The notes beneath the pieces were generated by a model. The model made no database searches, was not told where the DNA came from, and worked only from the letters and a program-made list of their open reading frames with translations. Shown one piece after another: positions 3,264 through 56,731 of a stretch of 64,000 nucleotides of DNA; position 1 is the stretch's first letter, and the number at the start of each line of letters is the position of its first letter. This DNA comes from Patescibacteria group bacterium. Lineage in GTDB: Bacteria; Patescibacteriota; Patescibacteriia; Magasanikbacterales; GWA2-37-8. Position numbers and translations under genes: made by a program. The DNA is taken from contig SCQK01000014.1 of the NCBI GenBank assembly GCA_004321885.1, positions 95,464 to 159,463 of the forward strand, given 5' to 3'.

Positions 3264-3989
3264 GTGAAAATATTTATTCGCGACGACGCGGACCAAAGCG
3301 TGTATAACGAAATTTTTAAGCTGGGCGAATATCGCGCCGCGGACAAAGCCATAAAAAACGCGCGTGAACCCGTTATAGACGTCGGCGCGCACGCCGGCTT
3401 TTTTAGTTTGTATTGCCGCGCGCTCAATCCCCAGGTGAAAATTTTCGCCATTGAACCCGAGCCGGAAAATTTTAAGCAGTTACAAAAACACATCGCGGGC
3501 AACAATATTAAGGGCGTGGAGCCGGTGCCAGCCGCTTTGGCCGGCGAGACCGGGGAGAGGGAGTTGATAATATCCAAAGACAATCATAATCATCGGCTCC
3601 GATTACCCCCTCCTCGCCTCCCCCTTATAAAGGGGGAGGACAATTTCCCTCCCCTTGATAAGGGGAGGGCGAGGGAGGGGTACTGGGTCGCGGCTTTTTC
3701 CTTGGGTGATTTTTGCCGGCGTTATAAAATCAAAAACGTCGCTTTGCTCAAAATGGACATAGAAGGAGGAGAGGAAGAAACGTTCAAAAGTGCGAGCGCG
3801 TCTGATTTGGCTATGGTAAAAAACGTAATTTTGGAGTATCATGGTAATAACTTCGCGCCAATAGAACAAAAATTGCGCGAAAACGGTTTTGGAGTACAGA
3901 AATTTCCGTCCAAGTTTGATAATAAAATGGGTTTTTTGTTTGCACGCAATAAAAGGTATGTCTCACCAAGCATGGATAGTGGCGGTTGA
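3264..3989 (+). CDS. FkbM-family SAM-dependent methyltransferase carrying an in-frame palindromic-repeat insertion
   Basis: VIDVGAHAGFFSLY and KMDIEGGE FkbM motifs. Residues ...HRLRLPPPRLPLIKGEDNFPPLDKGRAREGY... are encoded by two tandem family-A hairpin repeats (3600-3685). Confidence 0.7.
   Translation: MKIFIRDDADQSVYNEIFKLGEYRAADKAIKNAREPVIDVGAHAGFFSLYCRALNPQVKIFAIEPEPENFKQLQKHIAGNNIKGVEPVPAALAGETGERELIISKDNHNHRLRLPPPRLPLIKGEDNFPPLDKGRAREGYWVAAFSLGDFCRRYKIKNVALLKMDIEGGEEETFKSASASDLAMVKNVILEYHGNNFAPIEQKLRENGFGVQKFPSKFDNKMGFLFARNKRYVSPSMDSGG
3600..3685. repeat. Family-A GC-rich hairpin repeats (two tandem units) inside FkbM CDS
   Basis: CCTCCCCCTTATAAAGGGGGAGG and CCCTCCCCTTGATAAGGGGAGGG followed by GAGGGAGGGG tail. 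Confidence 0.85.
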
Positions 3990-5350: not shown

Positions 5351-7285
5351 TTGCTTATGCCCATAAGACTTTCGCCGGAAGTCAATATACCAGAGCCGAA
5401 AATGGAACAAAAGCCAGTCTCGGAATTATCGCGATTGCGCCATGAGTTGGATTTTGCGGACAAGATAAAAGGTTTTGAGGCCGGAGTGGAAAGTCCGAAT
5501 GATGGGCGGATAATGGCCGATGTTTTGGAAAGGCGCGATTGGGGGCATTTGTTCAGGGAAGCCAAGAAAGGACGAAGAATACTCACGTTCAAGACGCCAA
5601 GCGACGAGGTTTATAATTTAAAGAAAATGAATGACAAGGTTTTGGGCCCGACCAGGGTTGATGAAATCTTTATTTTTCGGCGTAAATTAATGGATGAAGC
5701 GGCAAAGAAAATCGGGGCGAAAGTCGTCATCAATCCGGTTGTCGCCGATGTCATGATTATAGATGAAGCTCGGAAGAATATAACCGAGGATGAATTAACA
5801 GAGATTGCGCGGGAAATTAAAGAGAAAATGACAGCCAAGATTTTGGCCCTGGCCGAGTCGGCGCAAGAGCCGGGCCGTCGCGAGGCGGCCGCGGCCTTTA
5901 TAAAAGAATTTAAGAAAAGCGGGTATGAAGTCAGGTTTGGTGTGGCCGATATTGAAGGCGACGACGAAGCGGCTAAAATTTCGGCTGTCAGCCGGTCTTT
6001 GCAAGCGTGTAAAATGGCAGCCGAGGGCGAATTTGGAAGCGTGTACAATCCGGAAAAAATCCTGCAAACCTTAGAGAGGATTTCGGTTTTAACGGAAGAA
6101 ATTGATAAAGCGGGCAATGAAATTACCGATGCAAATGGCTTTTCGTATTACATTATGATACAAGGAAGCATAAACATAGATGTTTTGCGCATGGCGCGCA
6201 GTTATTCCTTGAAAGTCAAAAAAGGCGACACAGACGGGGCAAAACAGCTAAGCCGTATTTTGGAGTATCTCAGCTTGATAAATAATTTGGATAATGTCAA
6301 ACCCTTTACGATGAAAGAGGTTGACGCGGGCGAGACCAAAAAACGAATAGCCCGCCATGAAGCGTTGGCAGAGAAAGTTAGAAGCGGCGATCTATCGGAT
6401 GACGAGAGAGCCGAGGCGGCCAAAAGCATTGAGAGAGATGAAAAGGACGGCCGCTTCACCGCCAGGAGCATTTTTCACCAAAGGGCTTCCGCGATGAGCC
6501 ATTGCCATTACATATTGATAGACGTTCGCGATATCGGAGTTGAGCAGTTAAAAAAATACGAGAGAAGGACTTTGGCTATCGCCCAGTTGAAAGACGACGC
6601 CACCAAAGTTGAGGCGTATGAGCAGGCGTCATTGGAGGCGGACGATGACACTACGGAAAAATTGCGTCGTTTTAGGGATGTCATCGTGGAGACAGTCAGG
6701 GAAAAATTTTCTTTGTCCGAGGCGGAAGAAATTTTGGGTTTTGTGGGCGGGGACGAGCTTAACTTGGCGATTGACGGCGACAAGTTTGGCCAGGAAAAAG
6801 TGGATGAATTGATTTTTGCGATAAAAGCCAGGCTGGCGGCGGGCGGAGTGGAAGCGAGAATCCAGACAGTTGTTTCACAGGCCGAGAAAGACATTGACAG
6901 CGCGAGCGGCCAGGAAGAAAAATTACAGGCTCATTTTGAATCGCTTAAAATGGCCGAAGAAGGCGCGGATATCGCCAAAGCCGTGGAGGATTTGGAGCGG
7001 AAATTGAATTACTATTTAATTAGGGGAGAAGAATATCCGGAGGAAGGAGTGGCGCCGGAGCGGCTGAAGGACTTTTTGGGCGACTTGAATTGGCTTTTTG
7101 AATTTCAAAATAAGAAGTTTAAGTGCGTTGATTTTAAGGTTGAAGCGCTCGGCGATGAACGGGTCAATATTGTGGGCCGCAAATCGTCTTTGCAATATTC
7201 CAAAAAGGAAATTAAGGCAAAATTGGAGAGTTTTATAACTCCGAACGATGTGGCAAAGATGCCAAAGGAGCTGAAGATGGCGTAA
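5351..7285 (+). CDS. Large acidic hypothetical protein (644 aa), mostly helical
   Basis: Long ORF, coding-like composition, strong terminator downstream. No confident family; see finding on possible palm-like D..D / GGDE motif pair. Confidence 0.6.
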   Translation: MLMPIRLSPEVNIPEPKMEQKPVSELSRLRHELDFADKIKGFEAGVESPNDGRIMADVLERRDWGHLFREAKKGRRILTFKTPSDEVYNLKKMNDKVLGPTRVDEIFIFRRKLMDEAAKKIGAKVVINPVVADVMIIDEARKNITEDELTEIAREIKEKMTAKILALAESAQEPGRREAAAAFIKEFKKSGYEVRFGVADIEGDDEAAKISAVSRSLQACKMAAEGEFGSVYNPEKILQTLERISVLTEEIDKAGNEITDANGFSYYIMIQGSINIDVLRMARSYSLKVKKGDTDGAKQLSRILEYLSLINNLDNVKPFTMKEVDAGETKKRIARHEALAEKVRSGDLSDDERAEAAKSIERDEKDGRFTARSIFHQRASAMSHCHYILIDVRDIGVEQLKKYERRTLAIAQLKDDATKVEAYEQASLEADDDTTEKLRRFRDVIVETVREKFSLSEAEEILGFVGGDELNLAIDGDKFGQEKVDELIFAIKARLAAGGVEARIQTVVSQAEKDIDSASGQEEKLQAHFESLKMAEEGADIAKAVEDLERKLNYYLIRGEEYPEEGVAPERLKDFLGDLNWLFEFQNKKFKCVDFKVEALGDERVNIVGRKSSLQYSKKEIKAKLESFITPNDVAKMPKELKMA

Positions 7286-7299
7286 AATACTTAATACAA

Positions 7300-7331
7300 A
7301 AATAGCCTTGAATTTAGGGCTATTTTTTTGC
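7300..7331 (+). terminator. Rho-independent terminator after 5351..7285
   Basis: Hairpin ATAGCCTTGAATTTAGGGCTAT followed by TTTTTTT. Confidence 0.7.
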
Positions 7332-7419
7332 GTTTAGTTTATCCACAGGCCAGCCCTTGATTTTTTTTCGGCTTTATGCTATGTTGGTTTGTCCCTATAA
7401 TGGGGAAGAGAGGAGACCC

Positions 7420-7995
7420 TACGGATGTGTGCTCGGCGATGGTTTTTTAGAATCGCCGGGCTGAAAGTCCGGCGGGTTGCATGGGACCCGCGTTCGCGGG
7501 AACTATGCTTGGAGTTTTGTTGCAGTGAGCTTGGAAACGGAGTTTCCAGCCCACTGCTTAGCCGCAAGGTCTGGCACGGGATTTTTGGGGATTTGCGCAA
7601 GCTTATCCTCAAGCCAGACCACATAGACACGTATACGTTGAAGCCAGTGTCTATGAGGCCGTTGGTGCCGGGCAGTTTGGCGCCTGATCCCGGGGGCGAA
7701 ATGCGAGTGAGACTCGTTTTCGCCGTTGGCCCGGGCGGGGCGAGCACTGACAGGGCCGGTGCGGAAAACGCGGCCGCGTTAATAGAATGGGAGTGGCCGC
7801 GTTGGTGGCGCAAGATGCTCTTCTTTTTTAAGGGAGAAGAGCAAGCCATGAGCTTGACGCCCGTGGATGACGTTGCCGCGGACACAATCGCGGCAAACAA
7901 ATAAAATTACGCCCGACAGAGCATCAGAGCATCGCCGGGCGAGCACATCAAGGAGAAAGGAGGAAAACCCGGCAGTTCGTCTGACCGGGTTTCGT
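7420..7995 (+). ncRNA. Candidate structured ncRNA (~570 nt) with RNase P RNA-like motifs; identity unresolved
   Basis: Perfect -10 TATAAT at about 7404-7409 with a weak -35. The region is GC-rich and non-coding-looking (the ORF 7425..7904 has a nonsense-like composition). It ends in hairpin AAACCCGG-N12-CCGGGTTT plus a T-run at about 7960-7995. It contains GAAAGTCCGG (P4 5' strand-like) after a P3-like hairpin GGCGAT..ATCGCC, and GGCACGG ... GCAAG..CCA.AUAG resembling CR-III of RNase P RNA. No T-loop, so it is not tmRNA. Confidence 0.4.
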
Positions 7996-8003
7996 ATTTT
8001 TAC

Positions 8004-8052
8004 TGTCATTCCAGCCCGCCTTTAGTCCCAGCGAAAGCTGGGATGGAATCCA
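8004..8052. repeat. Family-B repeat variant (TGTCATTCC-hairpin-GGAATCCA)
   Basis: TGTCATTCCAGCCCGCCTTTAGTCCCAGCGAAAGCTGGGATGGAATCCA. Confidence 0.7.
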
Positions 8053-8060
8053 TTCGCTGG

Positions 8061-9215
8061 TCATTTTTTCTCCTGCCCCAGCCAGTAGGCCGCCAGCAAA
8101 GTGGCGATGGGCACGGATAGGGCCACGCCGATACTGCCCACCAGGGTGCGCACGATTTCCGTGGCAATGGTTTCGTTGTTTATGGCTTGGGCCCAAGAGA
8201 GCGGCGGGTCGCGTTGAATATGAAACAGCAGTAAAACAGGCAAAGACGCTCCGGCGTAGGTTAAAAACAAAGTATTGACCAAGGCGCCCAAATGCGCGTT
8301 GCCGATTTTATAGGCTGATGTAAAAACTTGCGCGGGCGACAGCGACGGATTCGCGTTTTTTATTTCCCGCACTGCTTCAATTTGCCCCACGATTACATCA
8401 TCAAGCACGCCGATGGCGCCGATAAGTATGCCGGATAGTAACAGGCCCTGAAAATTTATGGCGCCCTTGTTCGCGCCGATTAAAAACATGGCCTCTTCCT
8501 GCCCCAGGCCGGAAAGCCGCGCCAGTTTCGTGAAAAGCCAAGACAGAAAAAACGTGGCCGCCAGCGAGAGCAAAACACTGACAATGGCCAGGTGGGATTT
8601 TTTATTCCAGCCTTCGTTTAAGTAAATAATGATGGCCAGCACCGCGAAGGCGCCAAACAAGGCGATGGGCAGGGGACTGACGCCTTTCATGAGCAAGGGC
8701 ACAATTATTTTGATAATTAAAAAAAAGCTGATGGCCAAGCCGACCAGGGCCAGCAGGCCTTTTTTCTTGCCCACCAAAAGAACCACGAGCGCGAAAATGA
8801 GAGTCAGCCACAACAGGGGAGTCTGGCGCACGTAATCTACTGCGTAAAAATTTTCCGTGCCATCGCTGCGCTTGACATAATTTACCAAAACCTTGTCGTT
8901 GACTTTATAAACTCCGGACGAGAGCACATCCAAATCGGAAATGCCGCTCACATTAAATTCTTTGTCTTCCCATTTTCCCTCCAGCCCGCGCAGAAGCAGA
9001 TTTTGTTGGACGGCTTGGCGGCCGTCCGGGCGCGTCGTTTCTTTTTGTTCCAGTATTTTTATTACTTTGGCTTTGAAAACCGCTTCTGTTTCATTGGCCG
9101 CATACGTACCGGCTGGCAGAAACAAAATAAAAAACAGCGTCAAAATAAAAATAATGAATCGTTTACGTCCCTCCCTTAGGGGGAGGATAGAAGGGGTATG
9201 CATGATGTTATACAA
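8061..9215 (-). CDS. YibE/F-family polytopic membrane protein
   Basis: N-terminal signal/TM, extracytoplasmic region, then 6-7 TM helices with the YibE/F-like layout (…SGLGQEEAMFLIGANKGAINFQG…). Confidence 0.55.
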   Translation of the reverse strand: MYNIMHTPSILPLREGRKRFIIFILTLFFILFLPAGTYAANETEAVFKAKVIKILEQKETTRPDGRQAVQQNLLLRGLEGKWEDKEFNVSGISDLDVLSSGVYKVNDKVLVNYVKRSDGTENFYAVDYVRQTPLLWLTLIFALVVLLVGKKKGLLALVGLAISFFLIIKIIVPLLMKGVSPLPIALFGAFAVLAIIIYLNEGWNKKSHLAIVSVLLSLAATFFLSWLFTKLARLSGLGQEEAMFLIGANKGAINFQGLLLSGILIGAIGVLDDVIVGQIEAVREIKNANPSLSPAQVFTSAYKIGNAHLGALVNTLFLTYAGASLPVLLLFHIQRDPPLSWAQAINNETIATEIVRTLVGSIGVALSVPIATLLAAYWLGQEKK

Positions 9216-9218
9216 CAG

Positions 9219-10321: not shown

Positions 10322-10349
10322 TTGACATTTTCGCTATTTTTTTCTATAA
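10322..10349 (+). promoter_or_regulatory. Consensus sigma70-type promoter (TTGACA-17-TATAAT) driving GIY-YIG ORF / tRNA-Asn
   Basis: TTGACAttttcgctatttttttcTATAAT seen directly. Confidence 0.65.
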
Positions 10350-10353
10350 TAGT

Positions 10354-10383
10354 TGTCATTCCGGACTTGATCCGGAATCCAGC
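10354..10383. repeat. Family-B repeat just downstream of promoter 10322
   Basis: TGTCATTCCGGACTTGATCCGGAATCCAGC. Confidence 0.85.
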
Positions 10384-10444
10384 TCCTTTGAAAATAAATT
10401 CCGGGGTAGCGCTCCGCCAGCCGGCGGAGGTAGCGCAGTTGGCT

Positions 10445-10693
10445 GTGTATACTGTTTACGCTATTTACAATCAAAAAAACGATAAAATTTATATTGGACA
10501 AACAAAAGACATGGCCGAACGATTAAGGTTGCATAATGAAAAAATCCTTCTTGGTTATACTTATAGATTTGATGGAAATTGGAAATTAATTTATAGTGTA
10601 CAGATCGAGAATAGACAAAAAGCTTTACAAAGAGAGAGACAACTTAAAAGTTTTAGAGGCAGAGAATTTATAAAACAATTTATTCCGGGGTAG
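10445..10693 (+). CDS. GIY-YIG nuclease-domain protein (stand-alone, YhbQ/UPF0213-like)
   Basis: VYTVYAIYNQKNDKIYIGQTKDMAERLRLHN is a canonical GIY-YIG motif with Arg and downstream Glu (IENRQKA). GTG start at 10445 with GGAGG 14 nt upstream; the ORF track begins at TTG 10322 inside the promoter. Its stop codon lies inside tRNA-Asn. Confidence 0.65.
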   Translation: MYTVYAIYNQKNDKIYIGQTKDMAERLRLHNEKILLGYTYRFDGNWKLIYSVQIENRQKALQRERQLKSFRGREFIKQFIPG

Positions 10694-10755
10694 CGCAGCG
10701 GTAGCGCAGAGGACTGTTAATCCTTTGGTCGTGGGTTCGAATCCCACCCCCGGAG
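10684..10755 (+). tRNA. tRNA-Asn (anticodon GTT)
   Basis: Cloverleaf by hand: acceptor TCCGGGG/CCCCGGA, D-arm GCGC-AGCGGTA-GCGC, anticodon loop CTGTTAA, T-arm GTGGG-TTCGAAT-CCCAC, discriminator G; no encoded CCA. Confidence 0.85.
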
Positions 10756-10761
10756 CAAAAA

Positions 10762-17811: not shown

Positions 17812-17919
17812 CCGCCCCGGCTTGATTATTTCGCCCTTTTGTGGTATACTGTTGGCATACCTTAATAGAAATGTCGTCAATTTCTGTTCGGTATATTTTA
17901 TTCACCAGAGAACATTTCT

Positions 17920-18120
17920 ATGAAAGGCACCATCAAGACCATCATTGCCGAGAAGAATTTTGGCTTTATCACGCCCGAAGACGGCGCCAAAGACATCTTC
18001 TTTCACGCCACTTCTTTAAGCGGCGTTGAATTCAGCCAGTTAAAGACCGGCGATGCCGTAAACTTTGATGTGGAAGAATCGGAAAAAGGCCCGCGCGCGG
18101 CCAATGTCACGTTAGCTTAA
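17920..18120 (+). CDS. Cold-shock protein (CspA family)
   Basis: GTIKTIIAEKNFGFITPEDGAKDIFFHATSL...GDAVNFDVEESEKGPRAANV has the RNP1/RNP2 cold-shock domain. Confidence 0.92.
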   Translation: MKGTIKTIIAEKNFGFITPEDGAKDIFFHATSLSGVEFSQLKTGDAVNFDVEESEKGPRAANVTLA

Positions 18121-18133
18121 CATCAAAAAAAAC

Positions 18134-18171
18134 AAACCCTGCGCCGACAAAGCGCGGGGTTTTGTTTTTTT
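18134..18171 (+). terminator. Rho-independent terminator after csp
   Basis: ACCCTGCGC-CGACAAA-GCGCGGGGT hairpin followed by TTTGTTTTTTT. Confidence 0.8.
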
Positions 18172-18270
18172 GAAAAATTGTGCTATACTATTTAGGGCCT
18201 GTCGCCGGATACGCTTTCGTGACGAAATGGTATTCGGCGACAGGCCCATTTATGAAGAAGAATCATTTGT

Positions 18271-32634: not shown

Positions 32635-32882
32635 TAGAGATGACGAAGCTCAGGCGGTGCATGTTGTTGGCGGTTGAGATCGTGTTCTGGACGGTTGGTT
32701 CGTTGGTTTACGTTGCGGTTGTGCTGTTTCTGGCGCCGCCGTTGCCGGTAATCACCGCTACTCTCGGCGTGTTTGGCGCCCTGCTGTCGCCGTTGGGAGG
32801 GGTCGCCTTCGGAACGGCGCTGGTTCTGGGCGCTAACAAACTTGAAGAAAGGAGGCGGAAATCAAGGCGGTTCTTTGTGTGA
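32631..32882 (+). CDS. Hypothetical small membrane protein (2 TM)
   Basis: ATGA overlap with the preceding gene; hydrophobic. Confidence 0.4.
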   Translation: MIEMTKLRRCMLLAVEIVFWTVGSLVYVAVVLFLAPPLPVITATLGVFGALLSPLGGVAFGTALVLGANKLEERRRKSRRFFV

Positions 32883-38157: not shown

Positions 38158-38252
38158 CTGGCTCCATAGTTGCGAAGCACTATGGAGCTCAAATGTTGGT
38201 CAGCAATTCGGCTCCACAGCCCCGACTGGGTCGGGGACTATGGAGCCAGCCA
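38158..38252. repeat. Family-C REP-like hairpins (2 units) after dnaJ
   Basis: GGCTCCATAGTTGCGAAGCACTATGGAGC and GGCTCCACAGCCCCGACTGGGTCGGGGACTATGGAGCC. Confidence 0.85.
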
Positions 38253-38273
38253 TAGGATAACACTGGATTCCCC

Positions 38274-48764: not shown

Positions 48765-48872
48765 CTGGCTCCACAGTCCCCGACAAAGTCGGGGCTGTGG
48801 AGCCGAAATGCTGGCCAACATTATGGCTCCACAGCCTCGGTCGCCTGCGGCGACCTCGGACTATGGAGCCAG
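48765..48872. repeat. REP-like hairpin array (family C), upstream flank of RAYT
   Basis: GGCTCCACAGTCCCCGACAAAGTCGGGGCTGTGGAGCC and GGCTCCACAGCC-TCGGTCGCCTGCGGCGACC-TCGGACTATGGAGCC; nested palindromes. Confidence 0.8.
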
Positions 48873-48913
48873 CCGATGAACAGTCAGCGATAAAAATATT
48901 CTTCTATAAACTT

Positions 48914-49459: not shown

Positions 49460-49690
49460 CTCGCTGGCTGCACGCTGGCTCCATAGTTTTTCGCGAAGCG
49501 AAAACTGTGGAGCCAGAATGCCAGCACTATGGCTCCACAGCCCCGACTTTGTCGGGGACTATGGAGCCAGCGACAACGCCAAGATGCCGGACAGCACTAT
49601 GGCTCCACAGCCCCGACTTTGTCGGGGACTATGGAGCCAGCGATAACAAAATGCCAGCACTGCGGCAGCGATTGCTATGGAGCCAGCGAC
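49460..49690. repeat. REP-like hairpin array (family C, 5-6 units), downstream flank of RAYT
   Basis: Repeated GGCTCCA(C/T)AGCCCCGACTTTGTCGGGGACTATGGAGCC units, with variant inner loops (e.g. TTTTTCGCGAAGCGAAAA). Confidence 0.85.
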
Positions 49691-55511: not shown

Positions 55512-56731
55512 AAATAGCTCACGTTATTTCAACGTTTCCGCCGCGAATCGGCGGAATGGGAAAAGTGTGTTTTGAAGAGGCGAAGGAATTGGCCAAGCGC
55601 GGGCACGATGTGACCGTGTTTACTTTGAGGTATGCGGATACCCCCTCCTCTGTCCCCCCCCTAAGAGGGGGAGGAATAAATGTGGTGCGAATGTGGCCGG
55701 TGGTGAGGGCAGGCGACGCGGGTTGGGCGCCGCAATTATTTTGGAAGTTGAAAAATTTTGACATCGTTCATTTACACTATCCGTTTTACGGCGGGGCGCA
55801 TTGCGTGTTGTTGGCCCGGCTTTTTCGGAAGCAAAAATATGTGCTCACGTATCACATGGACGCTCGGCCCGCAGGATTGTTAAAAAAATTTTTTCAAAAA
55901 ATTTACGATTTTATTTTCGCGAAAGCGATTTTGAGGAACGCGGAGAAAATGATTGTGATGGATAGGAAGTATTTTGAGGCCAGCACAAATACGACCGTTG
56001 GTTCCATAGTTCCCGACTCAGTCCGGACTGTGGAACCCAATGCCGGCACTTTGGCTCCACAGCCCCGACGTAAAGTCGGGGACTATGGAGCCAGCGTGAT
56101 AGAAATCGCGCCGGGCGTGGATGCGGAGATCTACCAGCCGTCAGGTGGCTGGCCTCAAGGGGGCCACTTCGGGGCCGGGAAAAAAACAATTTTGTTCGCG
56201 GCCAATCCCATGCCGTTGAAGCGGTTGGATTTGTTACTGAAGGCGTTGCGGTTGATGAACGAAGATGTTTCGCTTTTAGTGGTGGGAGGCGGTTACGCGC
56301 TTGAGGATTACAAAAAAATGGCCGAGGAGCTGGGGATAAAAAACAAAGTGGTTTTCGCCGGCCGGTGCGACAGCGAACAAAAAATGGCCGAGTATTATAA
56401 CTCCGCTTCTTGTCTGGCCATACCATCGCAATCCGAATCGTTTTCTTTGTCAGCGATTGAAGCAATGGCTTGCGGTTGCCCGGTGGTGGCGCGTGATATG
56501 CCGGCTATGGCCGGACGCGTGACACACGGAGTTGATGGTTGGCTGGTAAACAGCGATAAGCCCGAGGATTGGGCGCGCGTTCTTCGCGAAGCTGTGGGAC
56601 TTACCGCGGAAGAGCGCGAGCGCATAGGCGCGGCGGGCAGAAAAAAAGTCGTGGAAAATTATGATTGGAATAGACATGTGGATGAATTGGAGAAAGTGTA
56701 CAGTATGGATTCCGGCTCAAGGCCGGAATGA
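55508..56731 (+). CDS. GT4-family glycosyltransferase with two in-frame repeat insertions
   Basis: ESFSLSAIEAMACGCPVVA is the GT4 E-x7-E region. Family-A repeat (55640..55677) encodes DTPSSVPPLRGGG; family-C REP pair (56000..56096) encodes ...SIVPDSVRTVEPNAGTLAPQPRRKVGDYGAS... Confidence 0.8.
   Translation: MKIAHVISTFPPRIGGMGKVCFEEAKELAKRGHDVTVFTLRYADTPSSVPPLRGGGINVVRMWPVVRAGDAGWAPQLFWKLKNFDIVHLHYPFYGGAHCVLLARLFRKQKYVLTYHMDARPAGLLKKFFQKIYDFIFAKAILRNAEKMIVMDRKYFEASTNTTVGSIVPDSVRTVEPNAGTLAPQPRRKVGDYGASVIEIAPGVDAEIYQPSGGWPQGGHFGAGKKTILFAANPMPLKRLDLLLKALRLMNEDVSLLVVGGGYALEDYKKMAEELGIKNKVVFAGRCDSEQKMAEYYNSASCLAIPSQSESFSLSAIEAMACGCPVVARDMPAMAGRVTHGVDGWLVNSDKPEDWARVLREAVGLTAEERERIGAAGRKKVVENYDWNRHVDELEKVYSMDSGSRPE
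55640..55677. repeat. Family-A hairpin inserted in-frame in GT4 gene
   Basis: CCCCCTCCTCTGTCCCCCCCTAAGAGGGGGAGG. Confidence 0.8.
56000..56096. repeat. Family-C REP-like hairpins (2 units) inserted in-frame in GT4 gene
   Basis: GGTTCCATAGTTCCCGACTCAGTCCGGACTGTGGAACC and GGCTCCACAGCCCCGACGTAAAGTCGGGGACTATGGAGCC. Confidence 0.85.

Follow-up and report, generated by a model that had tools for sequence, protein, structure and literature searches.

A candidate stand-alone structured RNA of about 590 nucleotides in a large intergenic gap of a Patescibacteria genome

We analyzed a stretch of 64,000 nucleotides (nts) from the genome of an uncultured Patescibacteria group bacterium (assembly GCA_004321885.1, contig SCQK01000014.1, positions 95,464 to 159,463 of the forward strand; hereafter the window, with position 1 at its first letter), in which one intergenic gap may encode a large structured non-coding RNA (ncRNA). 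The gap measures 775 nt and is the largest of the 64 intergenic gaps in the window, the median being 48.5 nt; so much idle DNA would be exceptional in a compact genome. Its flanks, which an earlier note made from the sequence had called convergent or divergent, are convergent: a plus-strand gene for a 644-aa protein (5351-7285) and a minus-strand gene for a YibE/F membrane protein (8061-9215). The 644-aa gene is followed by its own terminator on the plus strand (7298-7327), a 13-bp hairpin and a T-run (-13.5 kcal/mol, z-score -3.48), which sets the candidate RNA apart as a transcription unit of its own. GC content is 57.6% at 7411-7995, compared with 49.4% in the window and 46.9% and 50.0% in the two flanking genes; it is indeed enriched, but its earlier description as much more GC-rich than the neighboring genes was too strong. 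The structured core of 536 nt (7418-7953) has no paralogue in the window, its sequence being unique there, and none of the palindromic repeat families of the window could be placed within 7411-7960. On these grounds, a cluster of repeat elements was rejected as an explanation of the locus.

The region has promoter- and terminator-like signals on the plus strand. A putative promoter at 7373-7401 consists of a weak -35 element (TTTATG, 7373-7378), a 17-nt spacer, and a perfect -10 box (TATAAT, 7396-7401), the latter having been recognized before, with the same weak -35 element, but placed at about 7404. Because the -35 element matches the consensus at only 3/6 positions, the site was not listed by a consensus scan. 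At the other end, a hairpin (7965-7992) and an interrupted T-run (7995-8001) form a terminator-like element at 7965-8001 (-16.6 kcal/mol, z-score -3.45), in agreement with the strong hairpin and T-run previously noticed there. After the hairpin, the plus strand reads CGUAUUUUU. The terminator scan missed this element because of a bulge and the interruption of the T-run. The hairpin is as good on the minus strand (-16.9 kcal/mol, then UUUUCC), and therefore the YibE/F gene may end there too; it is probably a bidirectional terminator that also serves this gene. Judging from the positions of these signals, a primary transcript of about 590 nt would span 7408-8001 on the plus strand, its start lying about 7 nt past the -10 box. 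The -10 box lies 22 nt upstream of a predicted terminal helix that joins the two ends of the core, and the terminator lies just past that helix. Unpaired purine tracts were observed on both sides of the terminal helix, at 7411-7415 and 7954-7963. The second belongs to the plus-strand tract AAGGAGAAAGGAGGA (7950-7964) and reads AGAAAGGAGG (7954-7963), which resembles a Shine-Dalgarno (SD) sequence and has no start codon after it. This string would be fully complementary to the 3' tail of a B. subtilis-type 16S rRNA. A second exact copy of AGAAAGGAGG is present at 32846, and the string may be merely SD-like.

Folds were computed with RNAfold, and z-scores refer to dinucleotide shuffles; the fold architecture given here is a thermodynamic prediction only. 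The plus strand of 7411-7995 reached -282 kcal/mol (z-score -9.8), and 0 of 100 shuffles were equally stable. In a separate control, the 536-nt core scored -8.8, whereas 12 other 536-nt segments of the window ranged from +0.4 to -5.8. Of the remaining segments, those with strongly negative scores carry copies of the palindromic repeats or a cold-shock-gene locus featuring an 18-bp hairpin, and the repeat families explain the negative z-scores of some of them. The minimum free energy (MFE) fold of the core on the plus strand (-264.3 kcal/mol; z-scores -8.8 to -9.8) has 182 predicted base pairs and about 10 hairpins arranged in nested domains. It is closed by an 18-bp terminal helix with a 2-nt bulge, in which the 5' strand GAUGUGUGCUCGGCGAUG (7424-7441) pairs with the 3' strand CAUCGCCGGGC-GA-GCACAUC (7930-7949) with probabilities of 0.97-1.0 (about 1.0 for the helix as a whole). 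The previous statement that no P1 pairing could be found is therefore wrong.

Within the terminal helix, the predicted plus-strand elements follow one another from the 5' side. A hairpin at 7453-7475 (probability 0.93) carries the 10-mer GAAAGUCCGG (7463-7472) and is followed, at 7479-7557, by hairpins H1 (7479-7508) and H3 (7522-7557), and between these two the long-range helix 7510-7521 / 7915-7926 has its 5' strand; these have probabilities of 0.74-1.0. Domain 1 (7562-7764, 203 nt) is closed by 7562-7566 / 7760-7764 and has three branches, namely H4 (7568-7620), with a 9-nt bulge ACGGGAUUU and a GCAA loop, H5 (7622-7655), in whose 16-nt loop the palindrome GUAUAC is found, and H6 (7657-7757), which is itself branched. 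H7 (7767-7803, probability 0.99) consists of a GC-rich stem of 11 bp and the 15-nt loop GUUAAUAGAAUGGGA, and its 5' arm AACGCGGCCGCGUU is palindromic in itself. Domain 2 (7805-7914) comprises H8 (7816-7843, 12 bp), H9 (7846-7866), H10 (7873-7896), and an A-rich single strand at 7897-7909. Loop-loop pseudoknots were also considered and dropped, the matches being of 5 bp only.

The 5' core can pair in a second way. Four segments (7431-7440, 7452-7461, 7466-7475, and 7930-7940) have two partners at near-equal energy, and the resulting alternative fold is nearly isoenergetic with the MFE fold (-260.5 vs -265.8 kcal/mol, a gap of 5.3 kcal/mol). In this alternative, a hairpin forms between 7431-7440 and 7452-7461, the GAAAGUCCGG 10-mer stays single-stranded, and CGCCGGGC at 7933-7940 in the 3' strand of the terminal helix can pair instead with 7467-7474. 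The isolated 57-nt 5' fragment folds into the alternative hairpin. Short direct repeats lie around 7431-7475/7930-7940, 7918-7933, 7735-7747/7934-7946, and 7772-7803, with AUCGCCGGGC, GGGCGAGCAC, and GGCCGCGUU each present twice and a tandem duplication of AGAGCAUC. It is due to these internal repeats that the 5' core has two mutually exclusive pairings, which possibly represent a conformational switch or the trace of a recent duplication.

The RNase P flavor that had been ascribed to the region was not borne out by searches for known families. At gathering thresholds, Rfam 15 returned only two tRNAs in the whole window. No RNase P model (RF00010, RF00011, RF00373, or RF00009) matched either at these thresholds or at E ≤ 10 on four slices (7250-8080, 7415-7960, 7420-7520, and 7895-7955, that is, 831, 546, 101, and 61 nt). 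Here, E-values were scaled by 4227 families, and a match under roughly 10-20 bits would stay hidden; the gathering score of RF00010 is 100 bits, and the E. coli rnpB control scored 318.6 bits. Among all Rfam 15 families, including the 6S, signal recognition particle, riboswitch, and intron models, only chance-level matches of 12-26 bits to unrelated short small RNA- or terminator-like models were obtained, and hence no RNase P, transfer-messenger RNA (tmRNA), or large-RNA family was found at E ≤ 10. A tmRNA, which the earlier note had already discounted, was rejected, since ARAGORN detected only tRNA-Asn and tRNA-Pro in the window and Rfam gave no tmRNA match. Likewise, nhmmer (--max), run with E. 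coli rnpB, with the consensus of RF00010, and with a profile made from these two sequences, produced 18 chance-level matches in the window (E 0.9-100), none of which falls in 7380-8000.

The motifs that had suggested RNase P are all present (GAAAGTCCGG at 7463-7472, GGCACGG at 7573-7579, GCAAG at 7597-7601, and CCACAUAG at 7619-7626), but those other than the 10-mer stand in structural contexts unlike those of RNase P. The string CAAGCC..ACAUAG, taken to resemble conserved region (CR) III, sits in helices 7613-7620 and 7622-7630 (probability 0.98-1.0). The GAAAGUCCGG block was said to come immediately after a hairpin; in the MFE fold, it makes up the loop plus the 3' arm of 7453-7475, and it follows a hairpin only in the alternative fold. 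It occurs in one exact copy in the window, and when one mismatch is allowed there are 6 matches vs 4.7 expected. At 7463-7472 it agrees with the CR-I block (A)GGAAAGUCCGG, with 10/13 matches to the RF00010 consensus AGGAAAGUCCGGg; at the 10-mer block, the RF00010 consensus is GAGGAAAGUCCGGg. A cobalamin riboswitch (59.5 bits) at 848-991 of metagenome contig L013 also contains GAAAGTCCGG, and therefore the 10-mer is not specific to RNase P.

In 10 of 35 complete Candidate Phyla Radiation (CPR) genomes, RNase P RNAs with missing helices or large helix extensions fell below Rfam thresholds, and such diverged matches were accepted at lower scores (Lui et al. 2021, PMC8172020). Because RNase P RNAs of CPR bacteria may escape these thresholds, we threaded the candidate by hand on the consensus and structure line of RF00010, using the list of predicted helices. 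Candidates for P2 and P5 had only 4 bp and clash with local helices of 8 bp (probability 0.98), no P7-P11 cruciform or P15 could be placed, and neither CR-II (ACAGAAA) nor CR-III (GGGUGAAA) occurs between the candidate P5 strands. With regard to P4 with its bulged U and CR-V (ACAGAAnCCGGCUUA), GUCCGGCG at 7467-7474 can pair with CGCCGGGC at 7933-7940, but only in a fold lying 5.3 kcal/mol above the MFE. The 3' strand of this P4-like helix is 2 nt from the 3' strand of P1, the U is wobble-paired to G7939, and only CAGAGC resembles ACAGAAC.

Relatives of the candidate were sought in several collections. Loci encoding either flanking protein in 185,579 species-representative genomes yielded no relatives. 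The nearest YibE/F orthologues are about 60% identical (in Magasanikbacteria, Falkowbacteria, and similar groups); on their contigs, synteny is not kept and the RNA was not found by nhmmer. The 644-aa protein has a single homologue among 5.8 billion proteins (28% identity), with no candidate RNA beside it. A GC-rich island near this homologue was rejected as an RNA, being ordinary coding sequence with codon structure; located at 3350-4137 of contig L008, it has 60% GC in a genome of about 36% GC and looks horizontally acquired. Scanning metagenome and viral contigs with six peptides from each long open reading frame (ORF) gave nothing related, blastn against phage and plasmid records gave nothing, and an exact 19-mer was not found in viral contigs. 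A DNA pattern composed of three motifs of the earlier note had 5 matches over metagenome contigs (about 3 being expected by chance according to a rough pre-scan estimate), all of which proved to be unrelated: a cobalamin riboswitch, a sequence of high GC content, and three copies of one coding-like sequence. A second copy of the region was found solely in a Logan contig (L015, SRR8426592), which is 100% identical. The organism is a singleton in current data.

Taking these results together, we give about even chances to an orphan ncRNA of about 590 nt, independently transcribed and stably structured, that works by virtue of its fold. The core idea of the earlier note, a stand-alone large structured ncRNA, is supported by the exceptional stability of the fold, the unique sequence, the size of the gap, the placement of the signals, and the absence of protein evidence. 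The gap between the 644-aa gene and the YibE/F gene would then encode a stand-alone ncRNA, most likely on the plus strand. Its transcription would start a few bases past the TATAAT box (7396-7401) and end at the hairpin and T-run (7965-8001), giving the transcript of about 590 nt. The middle 536 nt would fold into about 10 GC-rich hairpins in nested domains, with the 18-bp helix tying the ends together. Since its two pairings have near-equal energy, the 5' core may alternate between them or may fold stepwise while it is being transcribed. Such an RNA might provide a scaffold to a protein partner, act as a catalyst, or bind a ligand, and would not work via a peptide. Several points weigh against this reading. 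The -35 element is weak, and neither promoter nor terminator was found by simple scans. Thermodynamics does not fix the strand. AGGAG (7411-7415) stands 9 nt upstream of the AUG at 7425 in a textbook ribosome-binding layout. Within the core there are several short direct repeats and a tandem duplication of 8 nt, and its hairpins could stem from recent mutation instead of selection. Finally, no homologue was found in the genome, metagenome, viral, phage, plasmid, or protein collections, and there is thus neither covariation nor evidence of conservation.

The ribosome-binding layout introduces ORF159 (7425-7904, plus strand), a probably spurious ORF of 159 aa, for which GenBank lists a 103-aa form as hypothetical protein TAN32707.1 (EPN28_04285). 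We regard it as decidedly unlikely that the locus is an orphan protein gene, with ORF159 translated from AGGAG 7411-7415 and the RNA structure incidental or regulatory. Such a gene would have the canonical order of -10 box, AGGAG, 9 nt, ATG, 159 codons, TAA, and terminator, and the ORF was called by gene callers in both GenBank and the Logan assembly. One of five AlphaFold2 models computed without an alignment also shows an alpha/beta topology (pLDDT 56, pTM 0.53); however, the other four have pLDDT values of 29-39, and the best model has no fold match in the PDB (best E 0.066, TM-score 0.24). Moreover, ORF159 has no Pfam domain, and a k-mer search against 5.8 billion clustered proteins matched only its own entry. 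Its codon score is -0.03 bits per codon, which equals the mean of spurious overlapping ORFs (-0.02 ± 0.23) and is 1.5 standard deviations under the genes of the window (0.295 ± 0.21), and GC at its second codon positions is 0.50 vs 0.34-0.45 in genes. ORF159 had been described as the longest ORF of the interval, without a domain; the ORF exists as described, but a longer one of 173 aa runs on the minus strand (7379-7900), and comparably long ORFs on opposite strands are expected of GC-rich palindromic sequence. ORF173 had no match in an exhaustive HMMER search of 1.84 billion representatives. No Pfam match was found in any of the six reading frames of the region, and a pseudogene was rejected on that account. 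The start codon of ORF159 falls inside the predicted 18-bp terminal helix, which buries the only SD-preceded AUG, and translation therefore seems unlikely as far as the fold is correct. It seems highly improbable that the minus strand is the functional one, as a long structured 3' untranslated region or read-through product of the YibE/F gene. The region does lie directly downstream of that gene, and the minus strand of 7411-7995 has a z-score of -9.25, nearly as extreme as that of the plus strand. The energy difference between the strands (plus minus minus) is -37.5 kcal/mol, compared with -32.2 ± 7.8 in same-composition shuffles, and there are 22 G-U pairs on the plus strand vs 6 on the minus strand, a difference that is 13.4 ± 5.1 in shuffles. 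Base composition (G 180, C 130) thus explains the asymmetry, which the shuffles show to an equal degree, and an assignment to the plus strand from energy and G-U counts was rejected. As read from the sequence, the layout of signals alone favors the plus strand: it has the -10 box and the terminator, whereas on the minus strand a good YibE/F terminator (7992-7965, then UUUUCC) precedes the core and the promoter scan found no promoter-like site. In addition, YibE/F orthologues at about 60% identity have nothing similar downstream.

An RNase P RNA of an extremely diverged CPR type, which would cleave tRNA 5' leaders in the alternative fold, is quite unlikely in our opinion. Like class A RNase P RNA (RF00010), the candidate would be stand-alone, GC-rich, and highly structured, and a promoter-to-terminator unit with a predicted terminal helix joining its 5' and 3' ends would suit an rnpB gene. 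The best-conserved block of RNase P, GAAAGUCCGG, is also present in it as an exact copy, at a distance of about 40 nt from the 5' end of that helix. In the alternative fold only, the layout would comprise P1 (7424-7430 / 7943-7949), a P3-like hairpin (7431-7440 / 7452-7461), J3/4 UGAAA, and a long-range P4-like helix (GUCCGGCG 7467-7474 / CGCCGGGC 7933-7940), whose 3' strand lies 2 nt from that of P1 and is preceded at 2 nt by CAGAGC, where canonical RNase P has ACAGAAC. This fold costs just 5.3 of 265 kcal/mol, the first 57 nt adopt it on their own, and diverged CPR RNase P RNAs below Rfam thresholds are known (PMC8172020). On the other hand, neither covariance models, applied also to the 101-nt 5' core and the 61-nt 3' core, nor sequence profiles gave any RNase P signal, nhmmer not listing the region even among its chance-level matches. 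The candidate has about 540 nt vs 367 model positions, and the RNase P-like fold is not its predicted ground state. Threading by hand gave no P2 beyond a 4-bp chance-level match and no P5, P7-P11, CR-II, CR-III, or P15. Every known P4 has a bulged U that is instead wobble-paired here, CAAGCC..ACAUAG is held in two strong local helices, and the 10-mer recurs in a cobalamin riboswitch. The likeness to the P1/P3/J3-4/P4 junction is real but, on the predicted folds, resides in four segments able to pair both ways. The candidate is not a recognizable RNase P RNA, and we do not file it as one. It is also unlikely that the region has no RNA function at all and represents a hairpin-rich spacer, persisting between the convergent genes, that gathered inverted and direct repeats by local duplication or template switching or is left over from decayed acquired DNA, and in which only the end hairpins act, as terminators. 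The 13-nt direct repeats at 7449/7928 and 7735/7934, the two copies of GGCCGCGTT, and the tandem AGAGCATC duplication would fit such an origin, as would the many long and nearly perfect stems and the lack of any homologue as a sign of conservation. Several palindromic repeat families populate the spacers of this genome, with a diverged copy adjoining the region at 8003-8052, and the 644-aa gene is rare and accessory, with one distant homologue, so that the whole locus may be recently acquired. However, these repeat families are absent from 7411-7960, 775 nt of idle DNA would be exceptional in this genome, and an 18-bp end-joining helix across 500 nt with nested domains is not expected of independent local palindromes. 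Furthermore, the promoter- and terminator-like signals bracket the fold exactly.

With the structured ncRNA retained as the preferred reading, its design can be compared with those of known RNAs. Stable RNAs that are protected from nucleases, for example RNase P RNA, 6S RNA, and tmRNA, usually have their two ends tied together by a helix. Bacteria also possess large "ornate" ncRNAs of unknown or recently studied function, including OLE, GOLLD, ROOL, HEARO, and raiA. The candidate resembles these in its size class of 500-800 nt, its many hairpins in nested domains, its apparent stand-alone transcription, and its non-coding nature, and its palindromes GUAUAC (in a loop) and AACGCGGCCGCGUU (in a stem) could in principle permit self-association. 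Unlike them, it has no match to any Rfam family at E ≤ 10, and searches against phage, plasmid, and viral sequences found no phage or mobile-element context for it. Moreover, the ornate classes rest on covariation across many genomes, whereas the candidate is known as a single copy. With elements of its own genome that resemble repetitive extragenic palindromic (REP) sequences or miniature inverted-repeat transposable elements (MITEs), one of which adjoins the region at 8003-8052, it shares GC-rich, near-perfect intergenic hairpins; those elements have 3-9 copies per 64 kb, whereas the core of 536 nt occurs only once and includes long-range helices.

Some other features of the window were also recorded. 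Its intergenic DNA harbors at least three families of GC-rich palindromic repeats, for example TGGATTCCCCCGACTAAGTCGGGGGAATGACAA, CCCTCCCCTTATAAGGGGAGGG, and ATGGCTCCACAGCCCCGAC..GTCGGGGACTATGGAGCCAGCG (tandem at 49517-49647). A 33-nt family is found at 9218, 19139, 33064, 38264, and 57680, and further palindromic repeats lie at 3604-3679, 5294, 23636, 34467, 38797, 44931, 55465, and 55639 as well as at 38180-38256, 48795-48874, 49517-49647, and 56039-56096. The element at 8003-8052, between the terminator of the candidate RNA and the YibE/F stop codon, is a diverged TGTCATTCC...GGAATCC palindrome. It is within this element, at window position 8033, that the contig ends in the independent Logan assembly of this organism. 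The 644-aa protein encoded at 5351-7285 on the plus strand has no Pfam or PADLOC match; by eye, its C-terminal half shows a GGDEF-like "FVGGDELNLAI" after "ILIDVRDIG". A PADLOC search of the neighboring proteins revealed no link to a known defense system, and such a link was rejected. The second-largest gap (17812-18270) contains an unlisted ORF of 66 aa (17920-18120) that resembles cold-shock proteins, together with a terminator and a perfect 18-bp hairpin near 18200-18250. At 10322-10756, a 123-aa ORF with what looks by eye like a GIY-YIG-like N-terminus ends at 10693 inside tRNA-Asn (10684-10756).

The locus is probably a new RNA gene that was mistaken for the gene of a hypothetical protein, a view based on one sequence, and the GenBank annotation TAN32707.1 is probably wrong. 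The candidate would be the founder of its family and has so far no fellow member in it. A more specific and quite tentative proposal is that it is the first member of a new class of structured RNAs of >500 nt in Patescibacteria, whose 5' core would toggle between two near-isoenergetic pairings, one of them mimicking the P1/P3/P4 junction of RNase P; it may be a new RNA with no relation to RNase P, or else an RNase P that has been radically rewired and lacks P2 and a recognizable specificity domain. Patescibacteria genomes are tiny and gene-dense, and a non-coding gene of 0.6 kb would be costly, so it presumably has some role. RNAs that are both large and structured are rare among bacteria, and every new class found so far has pointed to new biology. 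If the candidate were an RNase P RNA, no known bacterial form would be more divergent, and current models could entirely miss an essential gene. If real, this RNA adds a large structured RNA from a lineage in which almost nothing is known about non-coding RNA.

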